Shown piece after piece: positions 538 to 64,000 of a DNA stretch of 64,000 nucleotides. Below the pieces are notes generated by a model that saw nothing but the letters and a program-made list of their open reading frames with translations, did no database searches and was not told the DNA's origin. This stretch comes from Candidatus Hadarchaeota archaeon (lineage in GTDB: Archaea > Hadarchaeota > Hadarchaeia > Hadarchaeales > JAGGTB01). The DNA is taken from assembly GCA_964384105.1 (NCBI GenBank), contig CAYLJV010000001.1, forward strand, positions 544,001 to 608,000. The letters run 5' to 3'. The translations under genes were made by a program, and so were the position numbers. Each line of letters starts with the position of its first letter. Within the stretch, counting starts at the first letter, position 1.

Positions 538-562
538 TTTACTTTCACCTACCCCCCACCCC
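538..562 (+). promoter_or_regulatory. Putative DNA-repair regulon motif upstream of the radA TATA box
   Basis: TTTACTTTCACCTACCCC (538-555) is identical to 62924-62941 upstream of nurA; TTTAAAAA follows at 571. Confidence 0.65.
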
Positions 563-610
563 AAAATCGGTTTAAAAATAAGAATAGGAATTGTTCCTGG
601 AGGTGAAACA

Positions 611-21113: not shown

Positions 21114-23327
21114 ATGTCTTCTCAGGAAGAGGTAGGATCGAAAAGCTTTGGTGCTTTTTCGGGAGTATTCGTACCGACTTTTCTAAGTATAATGGGAGTT
21201 ATCTTCTTCTTGCGATTAGGTTACGTCGTGGGGGTCGGTGGTGTGGCAGGTTCGATTCTTATTATTCTGATATCAGTTTCTGTCACGTTCGCCACTGGCT
21301 TATCTCTCAGTTCTATAACCACTAACATAAAAATAGGTCCAGGTGGAGCATATTCCATCATCTCCAAAACACTCGGTATAGAAATAGGAGGTAGCGTCGG
21401 CGTCCCGCTTTTTCTCGCACAAGCATTTTCTGTGGCTCTCTATATATTTGGGTTCGCGGAAACCTGGGTTTTCATATTTCCCGAACACCCCTTTTTGCTG
21501 GTTGCTTTGGGGATATTTGGGGCCCTTTTTCTCCTCGTGTTTATAAGTACAAAAATTGCGGTGCAGGCCCAGACGGTAGTATTTTTAGCGGTCTGTGTCT
21601 CCTTAATCTCCGTCTTTGCCGGAGGTAATCTACTTGACATAGGAAGCAGATCTCTCACAACACCCATTCTCGGGGCTTTTGCGGAGATGGACTTCTGGTC
21701 ACTCTTTGCTCTTTTCTTTCCGGCAGTAACAGGACTTATGGCCGGGATCGGGATGTCTGGCGAGTTGAGTGATCCAAAAAGGCAGATTCCCCGAGGAGTC
21801 TTACTTGGACTGGGAATAACGACCGTTCTCTATATCCTTCTAGTCGTATGGTTCGGTTACTCCGCTACCACGGCCGAACTTATAGACAATCCCCTTCTTA
21901 TCGTGGAGTTCGCTGCTTTCTCTCCCGCAGTTCTAGTGGGAATTCTCGCAGCGACCTTTTCCAGCGCCCTCACAACAATCATAGCCGCCCCACGAGTTCT
22001 ACAGGCCCTGTCACGGAATAGAGTTTTGCCATTCAGTGATATGCTGACCAAGAAAACAGAAAAAGGAGAGCCTAGAAACGCGACTTTACTTACGGGGTTG
22101 ATCGTCGTGATACTGTTGCTCATAGGGTCTCTCAACTCGATCGCTCAGATCCTAACCATGTTCTTTCTGATAGCTTACATGATGATTAACGTCTCCGTAT
22201 TTATCGAGCAATTCCTGGGTCTACCAAGTTTCAGGCCCACGTTTAGAGTTCCAAAGGTAATCCCTCTCTATGGAGCAATATCATCGTTTGTAATAATGTT
22301 TCTCATCAATATCCCTGCTGGAATTGGTGCTCTGGCTTTCGTTTTCGTAATGTATCTATTTCTAGTGAACAGGAAATTGAAACAGGAATCAGGAGACGTT
22401 CGTTCGGGTCTGTTCAGGGAGATCTCAGAATGGGCCACTAAGAAGATAAGAAAATTACCCGAATCGAGGGAGCATATATGGAAACCAAACTTATTGCTCC
22501 CAGTTCTGACAACTCGAACTCTTTCAGGGAACTTCCCACTAATAAAGTCGATAGCTTATCCTCACGGCACAATGACCGTGTTGGGATTTAAACTTACCAG
22601 AAATATCGATGACAACCCAGAGGTAGGAGAAGAGATCACAAAGGCGCAGATGGATAGAGAGCTAGAACAACTGCCCAAGCTTGTAAAAAGGTTCGGTGAA
22701 GAGGGAATATTCACCAATTTCTCCATGATAGAGTCAAAAGACTACGTTGAAGGCGTTCTTACATCTCTAGGGGCTATTTCTAGTCAAGTATTTTCCCCAA
22801 ACATACTTTTCTTACCTTTCAGACCCGACAAGATTTCAAAGTCGTCTCTGAAGAGAATAGCCAATACTTCAAAAGATGCTGGAAACGGCATCATCATCTT
22901 CGACAGAGACAAGGAGCTGGGACTAGGTTCCGAGAAGGAAATTCATCTTTGGATCTCCTCAGAAGCATTGGATAAAGATTTCGAAGAGGACAGATATTAC
23001 GATCTGGCAGGGCTGGTAGCCAACGAAATAAAAGAGAATTGGGACGGTACCATCAATCTGCACATGTGCATTTGTGAGAAAACAGAAAGGAAAGTGAAAA
23101 ACTATCTAAAAAAATTGATTGATGAGGCGAGGTTCTCCCCAGAAGACACTAAAATAAATATTGAAACGAAAGAGTTTATCGAAGCTTTACAGGAAGCACC
23201 AGATGGAGATCTTCATATAGTGCCATTTGATAGCTCGGACCTAAGTACGGTATTTGAGGCTGTAGAAGTAAAAGATAAATCCTACCTTTTTGTCTTCGAC
23301 TCGGGTAAGGAAAACTTACTGAGCTGA
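21114..23327 (+). CDS. Cation-chloride cotransporter (SLC12/APC family)
   Basis: FGAFSGVFVPTFLSIMGVIFFLR, GGAYSIISKTLG, FFPAVTGLMAG, WKPNLL cytoplasmic C-terminal domain. Confidence 0.9.
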   Translation: MSSQEEVGSKSFGAFSGVFVPTFLSIMGVIFFLRLGYVVGVGGVAGSILIILISVSVTFATGLSLSSITTNIKIGPGGAYSIISKTLGIEIGGSVGVPLFLAQAFSVALYIFGFAETWVFIFPEHPFLLVALGIFGALFLLVFISTKIAVQAQTVVFLAVCVSLISVFAGGNLLDIGSRSLTTPILGAFAEMDFWSLFALFFPAVTGLMAGIGMSGELSDPKRQIPRGVLLGLGITTVLYILLVVWFGYSATTAELIDNPLLIVEFAAFSPAVLVGILAATFSSALTTIIAAPRVLQALSRNRVLPFSDMLTKKTEKGEPRNATLLTGLIVVILLLIGSLNSIAQILTMFFLIAYMMINVSVFIEQFLGLPSFRPTFRVPKVIPLYGAISSFVIMFLINIPAGIGALAFVFVMYLFLVNRKLKQESGDVRSGLFREISEWATKKIRKLPESREHIWKPNLLLPVLTTRTLSGNFPLIKSIAYPHGTMTVLGFKLTRNIDDNPEVGEEITKAQMDRELEQLPKLVKRFGEEGIFTNFSMIESKDYVEGVLTSLGAISSQVFSPNILFLPFRPDKISKSSLKRIANTSKDAGNGIIIFDRDKELGLGSEKEIHLWISSEALDKDFEEDRYYDLAGLVANEIKENWDGTINLHMCICEKTERKVKNYLKKLIDEARFSPEDTKINIETKEFIEALQEAPDGDLHIVPFDSSDLSTVFEAVEVKDKSYLFVFDSGKENLLS

Positions 23328-23574
23328 TAACAAAGTCCGGGGGATTAACTAGAAATTGCTTAGTTTTCTTCGCTTTCTTTTTTTACTCCTTTTTCTTTAC
23401 CTTACTCTCTAGAATTCTTTGAAATATTGACATTTTGAACAAGCTCCAGTACACAATTATTTCTAGTTATTTATCGTCTTCGAAACTAATCTGACGAAAA
23501 TCTTTAAGTTTATATGAACTTTGTATCGTTTACGAAACATAATTTTTAAATTCTCGATTACAATATTTAACCAA

Positions 23575-24117
23575 ATGAAAGTAGAACATTTGAAAGTCGG
23601 CCTTTTGTTAGCGATAGTTATTCTAGTTTGTGCTACTGCAGTTTCCTACTTTACTTTAGATCATTTTTATGGAGCTTCTGAGACCGGTCAAAAATTAGAT
23701 TTAGAGGCTCAGACAACCACCGAATCTGCTAGAGTTCCCAGTTCTGCCCCATTTGATGTTGTTCCTGTTTCCGTGATTATAGGAGTCAGCATGGCGGGAC
23801 TCACATTGGCTGTTTGGAGCGGAAGTCAGGTTAGTTCCACCTCAGCAAAGTTACAGGGAACTGCAACTACGATACTTTTGAACGAGGGGTTGGAAGATAT
23901 GACTGTCAGAGATGTCGAAATAGTTAGTCGAATGATTAGTAAAAGTGAATTTACTGTCCCTCAACTGCTTAGAGGGGCCCAAGTCTCGAGGTCTTCGGTT
24001 TGGAAATTGGTAAAGAAAATGGTTGATAAGGGTCTTGTGGAAGAAACGGGTAAGGAGAGGCTACCTGATAGCGGCAGAGGTAAGCCCAGTAAGGTTTACA
24101 GATATGTTGGACCCTAG
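23575..24117 (+). CDS. Membrane-anchored winged-helix regulator
   Basis: Two hydrophobic segments, then FTVPQLLRGAQVSRSSVWKLVKKMVDKGLV and wing GRGKPSKVY; ATG 23575 preferred over TTG 23521. Confidence 0.75.
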   Translation: MKVEHLKVGLLLAIVILVCATAVSYFTLDHFYGASETGQKLDLEAQTTTESARVPSSAPFDVVPVSVIIGVSMAGLTLAVWSGSQVSSTSAKLQGTATTILLNEGLEDMTVRDVEIVSRMISKSEFTVPQLLRGAQVSRSSVWKLVKKMVDKGLVEETGKERLPDSGRGKPSKVYRYVGP

Positions 24118-62923: not shown

Positions 62924-62946
62924 TTTACTTTCACCTACCCCTCCCC
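62924..62946 (+). promoter_or_regulatory. Second copy of the radA upstream motif
   Basis: TTTACTTTCACCTACCCC-TCCCC followed by CTTAAAAA at 62953. Confidence 0.65.
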
Positions 62947-62995
62947 GCTTTCCTTAAAAAGTCCTTTAAGTCCTTTAGAATGGAGGATGAAATGA

Positions 62996-64000
62996 ATGAT
63001 TTCCGCTACAAGGGGCCCTACTCTTTTGAGCGAACAGAATCCCTTGGAACATAAACTTGGTGAAATAGCGGAGAAGATAAGAGATCAGGGTAGAAAACGC
63101 CGTTTAATAGCTAAAGTACTCCGAAACGTAAAAAATGATCTTCGTTTACCCCTAGATGAGAGGGGACTGGGGATAGTAGAATCAGACCTAGTTTACAGGG
63201 TTGAAGATTGTGTTTTGGATGATATTGTAGTGGCGGGTATAGACGGCGGGGTTTTAAATAAACCTTTACATGGGCTTGACCTTATATTGGTTAGAGCATT
63301 GGCAGCCATTTTCTCCTACGAGGATGGAAAACTCTCTGATGTAGACTACCACCCGAGTGAGATGCCCACTCCAGATTTAGTAAATGTTCATGAACCCCTA
63401 GATTCGAGGGAAATCGATATTTTAGTTGGTTTAAAGAGGCAGATTTCCGAGATTGATAGAGCTCGGGAAACCGCCCAAAAGAAGGATGTCGATGTTATCA
63501 TGCTAGATGGTTCCGTTGTTCCTCAGTACACTAATAATGTTAGAGGCGAAATGACTCGGGAGCTCTACAAAAAGCTGATCTATTCTTACAGGGATTTATA
63601 TCAACTATGCGAAAAAAAGGAGATTCTACTTCTTGGAGCGGTAAAAGATAGCAGAAGTGCCAGGTTAGCAAAGCTATTTCAAAAAAAGATTTTCCCGAAG
63701 CTTGTAGAGGAAATGGATCTTTCCGTTGATGAATTGGATTCTATAGATAGGAACAGTGATATACTTCTTATCTCGAGGGATACGGATTTCTTGGACTATT
63801 TATTGGATGCCAAAGAGAGAAGCTTCACGTTCAAATATTCAGAATCTTCTGCCCCTCTTCTGAATGATCTTGGTGAATGGAAGGAGAGTATATACGCTTT
63901 CTACGTTAAACCTGTGCCGTACGACTGCCCGGTTAGAGTGGAATTCGTTAGTGATCAAAAAAGCGTTTTAGAAAGTGCAGAAAAATCCGCTGCACTTGTC
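62996..64000 (+). CDS. nurA: NurA-family 5'-3' nuclease, truncated by window end (not in ORF track)
   Basis: Own translation of open frame: VVAGIDGG, VIMLDGSVVP, LGAVKDSRS, FYVKP...PVRVE; exact start uncertain. Confidence 0.85.
   Translation, partial: MISATRGPTLLSEQNPLEHKLGEIAEKIRDQGRKRRLIAKVLRNVKNDLRLPLDERGLGIVESDLVYRVEDCVLDDIVVAGIDGGVLNKPLHGLDLILVRALAAIFSYEDGKLSDVDYHPSEMPTPDLVNVHEPLDSREIDILVGLKRQISEIDRARETAQKKDVDVIMLDGSVVPQYTNNVRGEMTRELYKKLIYSYRDLYQLCEKKEILLLGAVKDSRSARLAKLFQKKIFPKLVEEMDLSVDELDSIDRNSDILLISRDTDFLDYLLDAKERSFTFKYSESSAPLLNDLGEWKESIYAFYVKPVPYDCPVRVEFVSDQKSVLESAEKSAALV

Follow-up and report, generated by a model that had tools for sequence, protein, structure and literature searches.

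A conserved box upstream of repair and replication genes in Hadarchaeota and its likeness to the UV-B motif of Halobacterium

A short promoter word in an uncultured archaeon bears on how repair genes are coordinated in archaea outside the Sulfolobales. The word was noticed in a stretch of 64,000 nucleotides from a Candidatus Hadarchaeota archaeon (assembly GCA_964384105.1, contig CAYLJV010000001.1; G000:C1:544001-608000), which we call the window, in a genome of 1,617,343 bases, 12 contigs, and 40% G+C. An earlier note, made from the letters of the window, had reported one identical 18-bp word, TTTACTTTCACCTACCCC, upstream of the recombination genes radA and nurA, and had proposed that it is an activator site of a lineage-specific, SOS-like regulon. 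Here, we ask whether the word is a real signal, which genes share it, and what might read it. About eight units in this genome share a composite promoter of ~45 bp whose upstream part, at radA and nurA, is the 18-mer, and this promoter is kept at orthologous repair and replication genes in at least two phyla. We consider it probable that this is a shared, conserved box of a repair and replication regulon, homologous to a motif of Halobacterium and acting via a factor bound upstream of the core promoter; this confidence covers the core claim and not a named binder. Since the box matches a signal at UV-induced haloarchaeal genes, the regulon it marks is probably old and an archaeal counterpart to the SOS regulon of bacteria.

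The two copies of the word are exact and form a unique pair in the genome, as the earlier note had it for the window. Both are on the + strand, at 538-555 (radA) and 62924-62941 (nurA). In the window there is no third match even with up to three mismatches, and in the whole genome there is no match with zero or one mismatch besides these two. At least two matches with up to three mismatches were found in 0 of 100 dinucleotide-preserving shuffles of the window, and the number of copies expected by chance, computed analytically on both strands with Markov models of order 1, 3, and 5, is 0.7-1.2e-4 against the two observed.

The surroundings of the two copies are built alike. At radA (611-1543, +, 310 aa, TTG start; Pfam Rad51, E 2e-91), the box at 538-555 holds the core TACTTTCAC (540-548), in it an ANTTTC-type hexamer, ACTTTC (541-546), and ends in ACC and a first C-run (551-555). 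It is joined to the core promoter by a pyrimidine- and C-rich run, CCACCCC, and the spacer AAAATCGG (556-570), possibly resembling a B recognition element (BRE), and at this spacer position a pyrimidine run followed by AAAA is kept across 63 order-level sites. A predicted TATA-like box, TTTAAAAATA, follows at 571-580, placed from its sequence and from the A/T box at the same distance in relatives, and GGAGGTGA lies at 599-606. At nurA (62996-64000, +, ATG at 62996; Pfam NurA, E 6.5e-16), which continues past the window to C1:608171 with herA and a 272-aa open reading frame (ORF) behind it, the box at 62924-62941 is the top match of a weight matrix built from relatives only, and has its ACTTTC at 62927-62932. 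A second C-run, TCCCC, with the spacer GCTTTCC (62942-62953) is kept in same-genus nurA promoters, and the predicted TATA-like box TTAAAAAG (62954-62961) is placed from its sequence and from the nurA promoters of relatives. The second C-run and TATA box that had been described at both genes are indeed present, with C-runs at 559-562 and 62943-62946 and TATA-like boxes 8 and 7 nt behind them. The distance from box to TATA-like box is 15 nt at radA and 12 nt at nurA, the box begins 73 and 72 nt ahead of the respective start codons, and at both genes a Shine-Dalgarno-like GGAGG stands between TATA-like box and start codon.

The two promoters belong to a larger set. The family TACTTTCAC-N3-CCCC (TACTTTCACNNNCCCC) has six exact and two near copies in this genome, where 0.04 would be expected for the exact form. 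All eight sites are intergenic, are directed at the downstream gene, and have an A/T box after 12-16 nt; they are single copies spread over five contigs, none of them clustered. Named with Pfam, the units include radA with a 42-aa ORF, nurA-herA with the 272-aa ORF, top6B-top6A, and an operon of mcm, a GINS gene, and an initiator-type orc1/cdc6 that may begin with a 61-aa ORF. The others are an Ogg-type glycosylase gene behind one for a 268-aa protein that weakly resembles primase/PrimPol (E 0.015-0.03), a TnpB-type gene that is single-copy in the genome, an 88-aa winged-helix gene that ends at window position 249 and is preceded by a 46-aa ORF, and a 26-aa micro-ORF with PhoU-like and B3/4-domain genes behind it. 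When a weight matrix was built from 17 sites, all from other genomes, it gave genome-wide ranks 1 to 7 to the nurA, mcm, radA, micro-ORF, TnpB, PrimPol-like/ogg, and winged-helix sites, while the top6B site was rank 13 of the 16 matches over threshold. Given this ranking and the list of genes, the box is therefore not at many promoters of unrelated function. The genome-wide search that had been suggested places it at herA (via the nurA operon), mcm-gins-orc1, top6BA, and the ogg operon, that is, before a repair and replication gene set. The second RadA paralogue (C1:697949-698842, −), which is 54% identical to RadA and stands directly after another gene, has no box within 260 nt upstream.

Several features of these units were seen in passing. 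The boxes are all on the + strand of their contigs (C1, C3, C4, and C5 among them), which may be chance or may reflect contigs oriented against a reference. The PrimPol-like and Ogg operon (G000:C5:22317-23123 and 23156-23788; L006:918-1724 and 1757-2389) is conserved behind the box in three families, and its 268-aa protein, whose weak similarity is to the primase small subunit and LigD PrimPol, is unannotated. The 42-aa ORF immediately after radA (1555-1683, +) has homologues in G002 and G003 with a box of their own. It has a KV+VEEWL-like stretch in common with the 26-aa ORF (G000:C4:2155-2235; L005:1756-1836), and this stretch is also present in the 47-49-aa homologues of G002 and G003.

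Conservation upstream of orthologous genes was examined across the order. The exact pattern was found in six of six same-genus genomes and in one of 34 others, and a reversed-pattern control had no match in any of the 41 genomes searched. The 17 sites in relatives precede radA (five, including one from G029, which is not of the genus), nurA-herA (four), PrimPol-like/ogg (two), mcm (one), homologues of the small post-radA ORF (two), and other genes (three). Order-wide, the form at orthologous radA and nurA is mostly ACTTTCGGTGACC, and the pattern ACTTTCGGNGACC has 160 matches in 37 of 61 order genomes, against 16 for its reversed control. Outside the genus, radA promoters align column-wise, with TACTTTCGGTGACC, a pyrimidine run, AAAA, and TTAAA. 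The strict pattern is present at 21 of 30 radA loci, and the other nine have variants with one to three further changes at the same position. At nurA, it is present at 26 of 30 loci; two more have one mismatch, and at the remaining two the contig breaks off, leaving 6 and 11 nt of upstream sequence. By coordinates, a box stands 2.5-4.5 kb upstream of the initiator orc1, at mcm-gins-orc1, in ~19 genomes. The RadA proteins of genomes with orthologous boxes are 57-77% identical. The box is kept at radA and nurA and is not at many unrelated promoters, so of the two outcomes that the earlier note had named as speaking against a regulon, neither was observed.

The wider gene content was sampled through 40 sites of the ACTTTCGGNGACC type, taken from G028 (11 of 11), G017 (five of five), G025 (four of eight), G048 (two of eight), G041 (10 of 11), and G057 (eight of nine), the already-seen radA sites of the last two being omitted. 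By Pfam, the downstream genes were MCM (four), RadA (two), NurA (two), an intein-bearing DEAD helicase (one), a B3/4 protein (one), a radical-SAM protein (one), LAGLIDADG endonuclease-like (four), IS200/IS605 TnpA or TnpB (six), DDE transposase (two), and other (five), with no family match at 12. Among those 12 are two PrimPol-like homologues beside ogg and one DnaG-like gene, recognized by eye only.

One family of the order, f2, has no pattern match, has only the box-less RadA paralogue, and yielded nurA in none of six genomes. It was considered as a natural box-less lineage, but in all three loci that reach far enough mcm is preceded by a box that has diverged to a form like TAACTT(T)CGGGTCACCTCTCT, and this reading was dropped. 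Two full-length RadA paralogues, ~54% identical, are found in nearly every genome of the order, and the box is at one only; the box-less paralogue stands directly behind another gene. In family f5 (G012, G015, G018; L285-L287), the promoter of the box-type radA is compressed, with ACTTTTCCCC or ACATTTTTCTCC abutting TTTTTAAGG, a spacing nearer to the Sulfolobus arrangement. Where radA has moved away from the winged-helix gene (G002, G003, G005, and G006), a leader of ~150 nt separates the box promoter from the start codon (L029:440-530, L024:1560-1640, L027:1440-1530, L020:1560-1640). This leader has a G/C-rich stem whose two arms covary between genomes and an invariant ACCAGCCTCC that could pair with the ribosome-binding site GGAGAGGTGA; Rfam gave no match to it at E 0.1 or better, and it may be a translational control leader. 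In nurA promoters, two interchangeable variants of the box are found, TACTT-TCGGTGA-CC (G051, G054, and G020) and TACTT-TCACCGA-CC (G057 and G043), in which the 7 bp at the centre are exactly inverted relative to each other, and one genus has both. The centre of the box may be read by its shape, or not read.

The proposal that the regulon is lineage-specific did not hold. In eight of nine Thermoplasmata genomes examined, the region ahead of radA has (C/T)ACTTTC[AG][CG]..ACC with a C-run and a TATA box spaced as in Hadarchaeota, and CACTTTCACNNACC in Thermoplasmata is also ahead of nurA-herA, Ssb/RPA-like, radical-SAM, and DUF763 genes. One Bathyarchaeota metagenome-assembled genome has TTACTTTCAC 155 nt before radA at a different spacing, and we have not assigned it to the box. 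A literature search, outside of which most subscription journals lay, found no Hadarchaeota or Thermoplasmata repair box described. The same box was already on record for haloarchaea and Methanospirillum: in Halobacterium sp. NRC-1, Boubriak et al. (2008; PMC2556686) reported TTTCACTTTCA upstream of the TATA box at the UV-B-induced genes radA1, top6B, vng17, and vng280, and none at radA2. The transposase gene npa, also induced, had the near-match TTTTACTTTCA, and motifs like it were seen before the radA genes of Methanospirillum and of further haloarchaea. The motif is thus real and reads as the earlier note had given it. Positions 537-547 of the window are TTTTACTTTCA, one change from TTTCACTTTCA and identical to the near-match published for npa; the nurA copy, CTTTACTTTCA, has two changes. 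In the same search, no binder was found named for the Halobacterium motif since 2008.

The second element named in the note, the ANTTTC site of Orc1-2, was likewise found in the literature as stated. In Sulfolobus, A(N)TTTC is located at −44 to −39 of UV-inducible promoters, and the upsE promoter of S. acidocaldarius has ACTTTC (Le et al. 2017, PMC5817253). The element was shown to be footprinted by Orc1-2 and was given a 20-bp consensus, AATAGTTTCRGWDTACTCWS (Sun et al. 2018, PMC6061795), and mutation of the hexamer abolishes induction in Sulfolobales (PMC6061795, PMC5817253). The specificity of Orc1-2 comes from both its initiator-specific motif (ISM) and its winged helix; in A. pernix ORC1, the ISM is stated to contact a G-tract, whereas for Orc1-2 the authors give the place where the ISM binds as not known (Liu et al. 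2022, PMC9738581). The order consensus of the box, AATACTTTCGGTGACCTCTC, which is the majority of 63 distinct order-level sites, agrees with the Sulfolobales 20-mer at 17 of 20 positions, a score reached by 0.02% of 20,000 shuffles (all offsets, both strands). Both elements have a non-palindromic ACTTTC hexamer upstream of BRE and TATA, and in both cases the genome encodes a second Orc1/Cdc6 paralogue. The box is probably a counterpart of the Sulfolobales damage-responsive element.

How might such a box work? We propose a composite promoter in which a protein-binding box, TACTTTC-N4-ACC with its C-rich run, is followed after 12-16 nt by the TATA-like box; with a transcription start ~25 nt behind the latter, the box would be at about −63 to −46. 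One sequence-specific factor would bind there, upstream of BRE and TATA, and might help to recruit TFB and TBP, that is, activate, and the box genes would be raised together upon DNA damage or replication disturbance. Mobile elements appear to have borrowed the same box. With the preferred binder, an Orc1/Cdc6 paralogue, the winged helix would sit on ACTTTC and the ISM on the C/G tract.

That binder is a tentative choice. Two Orc1/Cdc6 genes are present in the genome. The copy that shares an operon with mcm resembles the initiator (353 bits for Orc1-1, 2qby_A; 95 for 1fnn; 52 for A. pernix ORC2, 1w5s), whereas the second, C5:3155-4342, reaches 204 bits with 1fnn, 188 with 2qby_A, and 99 with 1w5s, matches a different NCBIfam equivalog, and is found in 59 of 61 order genomes. 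Since the box is conserved across phyla, its reader should be so too, and this favours the Orc1/Cdc6 paralogue; the non-initiator copy is our preferred candidate, with a real though less than even chance. It is quite possible too that the binder is something other than an Orc1/Cdc6 paralogue or a winged helix-turn-helix (wHTH) protein. In the promoter of the second paralogue, in this genome only, TACTTTCAC occurs at G000:C5:4365-4373 (−; L141) directly behind the TATA-like TTTTTTTAG, which is the position typical of a repressor site, and G006 has GCTCTCGGTGAAA at the same place.

Several points weigh against a damage-induced box read by an Orc1-2-type protein. The best solved relative of the second paralogue is 1fnn with Orc1-1 (2qby_A) close behind, and orthology with Orc1-2 is conjectural. 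The orc1-2 gene of Sulfolobus has the element in its own promoter, whereas the Orc1-2-like gene lacks a box in its own promoter at 29 of 30 order loci and, in a further set, at 27 of 27 loci, 23 of which are Thermoplasmata-type records. The Thermoplasmata genomes were selected for encoding the second paralogue, and because they were picked in this way the co-occurrence of paralogue and box in them is not an independent test. The radA site of this genome matches the Sulfolobales 20-mer at only 11 of 20 positions. From hexamer to TATA-like box there are 24 nt here, some 16 nt more than the ~8 nt of S. acidocaldarius, where the hexamer is at −44 to −39, with the start sites here inferred; the geometry therefore differs, and in its distance to the core promoter the box fails one defining feature of the Sulfolobales element. 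The Sulfolobales regulon comprises ups, ced, and tfb3, with replication initiators down, whereas the genes here are those of recombination and the replisome. Finally, joint induction by damage would be carried over by analogy from Halobacterium and Sulfolobus.

A further question is whether the box responds to damage at all. It could be a replication- or cell-cycle-coupled (S-phase-like) module, or a constitutive strong-promoter module, which we regard as unlikely. Such a module would be in keeping with mcm-gins-orc1 and top6BA in the set and, in relatives, with the DnaG-like gene identified by eye, and replication genes are repressed in the Sulfolobus damage response (PMC9738581). However, the same motif in Halobacterium marks UV-B-induced genes, among them top6B (PMC2556686), and the presence of the box at mobile elements and homing-endonuclease-like genes is a better fit to a stress signal.

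Next to the radA promoter lies another candidate reader. The 88-aa wHTH gene (1-249 in the window, +, starting 18 nt before it; Pfam HTH_45 / HVO_A0261_N) has its own box 231 nt upstream in this genome (C1:543752), and between it and the radA promoter region lies a divergent Lsm/Sm-like gene (246-473, −; Pfam LSM, E 2.6e-18). It might be a local regulator that grew into the regulator of the regulon, as in the case of Sta1, a small winged-helix protein that activates the damage-inducible radA paralogue sso0777 of S. solfataricus (PMC2175319, PMC2556686); the site quoted for it in PMC2556686 contains TTTTCAC. The gene is found in 54 of 61 order genomes, almost always in the order wHTH(+)-Lsm(−)-box-radA(+), and in G002 and G003, from which radA has moved away, it still stands 260 nt before a box. 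However, the arrangement ABCE1-wHTH-Lsm-radA may be plain conserved synteny, and a box upstream of the wHTH gene was seen at one of 30 loci, that of this genome, so that autoregulation is not seen elsewhere. Searches with the single sequence found a homologue in none of five box-bearing Thermoplasmata, and a profile of 15 sequences gave one weak match (E 0.009), although so short and fast-evolving a protein may escape homologue searches. In family f2, with its box variant at mcm, wHTH matches are weak or none (two of six, 25% identity). We think it improbable that this protein is the binder.

Activation itself may be questioned, since a C-run reaching to within 7-8 nt of the TATA-like box would let a large bound protein occlude the BRE, and the box could then be a repressor operator with LexA-like logic. 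Most archaeal repressors act on or behind the TATA box. The core here is upstream of BRE and TATA, where archaeal activator sites lie (PMC5817253), and mutation of ANTTTC in Sulfolobus abolishes expression and causes no de-repression (PMC6061795, PMC5817253); an operator is decidedly improbable.

Boxes at mobile elements suggest a further origin, namely that the box is an IS200/IS605 end sequence scattered before genes and no host regulatory site. In G041, six of 10 sites are within near-identical IS200/IS605 left ends, with four intact TnpB by Pfam and two truncated or frameshifted copies by eye, and the box is found at further TnpB genes and at DDE transposase genes as well. Yet this genome has one TnpB copy against eight boxes, the box is at orthologous radA, nurA, and mcm promoters across the genomes with 57-77% identical RadA and in another phylum, and the element copies follow the local variant of their host (CAC in this genus, CGG elsewhere), as borrowing would have it. 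We hold this origin to be very improbable. That the copies are origin recognition boxes (ORB) bound by the initiator Orc1-1 for replication is scarcely credible: one copy is upstream of mcm-gins-orc1, and ACTTTCAC resembles what we take to be the TTTCCAC half of ORB elements, but the boxes are single, dispersed, gene-directed, and at a fixed distance from a TATA-like box.

As an observation in its own right, IS200/IS605 elements with TnpA and TnpB hold the box inside a conserved left end, AGGGAGGGGATGA... (G041: L171-L173, L176, L179, L180; G057: L184, L187), and DDE transposases and free-standing LAGLIDADG genes likewise carry it. Selfish elements appear to be wired to a host repair signal, which suggests that TnpB/IS200-IS605 elements and homing endonucleases may time their expression to host DNA damage. 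RNA-library contigs (X1-X4, from two studies; 95-99% identical) cover radA from 609, 618, or 626 to 1676-1717, one of them spanning radA and the 42-aa ORF, and none lies over 281-608; such contigs show neither a start site nor prove transcription, and nothing is concluded from them.

Returning to the preferred reading of a shared repair and replication box, its interest is that throughout an uncultured order, and in one phylum beyond it, the same signal stands before radA and nurA-herA, alongside replication genes, and that it closely resembles the Orc1-2 element. The observations from Halobacterium and from Sulfolobales can be joined and thus become one hypothesis, with defined promoters, point mutations, and two candidate proteins. 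In its widest form, which we regard as doubtful, there would be one ancient element of ACTTTC and a C/G tract, read by a non-initiator Orc1/Cdc6 protein and serving a damage regulon in Sulfolobales, haloarchaea, methanogens, Thermoplasmatota, Hadarchaeota, and perhaps DPANN; in most lineages it would drive radA, nurA-herA, and replisome genes, and it would have been borrowed repeatedly by IS200/IS605-TnpB elements, DDE transposons, and homing-endonuclease genes. If true, the element would be to archaea what the SOS box is to bacteria, with a paralogue of the replication initiator taking the part of LexA, and the borrowing elements would switch on when the DNA of their host is damaged. The box also offers a cheap computational marker with which to predict the repair regulons of uncultured archaea.

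Compared with known systems, the box shares the logic of some and the layout of others. Bacterial SOS boxes are palindromic operators of the self-cleaving repressor LexA, and archaea, to our knowledge, have no LexA (this genome was not searched for it). Like the LexA box, the Hadarchaeota box is one short word ahead of a recA-type recombinase and of repair genes that is used by mobile elements too, but it is asymmetric and is upstream of the core promoter. With ORB and mini-ORB elements it has in common a word followed by a C/G tract, and possibly the family of the reader, Orc1/Cdc6. The order of word and tract in ORB elements is the opposite one, and unlike them the Hadarchaeota boxes are not clustered at an A/T-rich origin. 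The likeness of the C-run to the G-strings of ORB elements, which the earlier note had raised, is an analogy, made plausible by the contact of the A. pernix ORC1 ISM with a G-tract (PMC9738581). Sta1 has been discussed with the Lrs14 family, whereas the wHTH protein beside radA weakly matches HTH_45 and Sso10a-like models. The Halobacterium motif differs in that the Hadarchaeota box extends into ACC and a C-run and is without a second TTTCA repeat, and its gene set is wider, with nurA-herA, mcm-gins-orc1, and the ogg operon. UV-B induction was measured for the Halobacterium genes. Small orphan ORFs are among the genes with the Halobacterium motif, as they are among the Hadarchaeota box units. 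Both signals lie upstream of a TATA box and some 50-70 nt ahead of the start codon, and both are found at radA and top6B-top6A, at small ORFs, and at a transposase-type gene, and not at the second recombinase paralogue. Judged by sequence, position, and gene set, the box is a member of the Halobacterium motif family.

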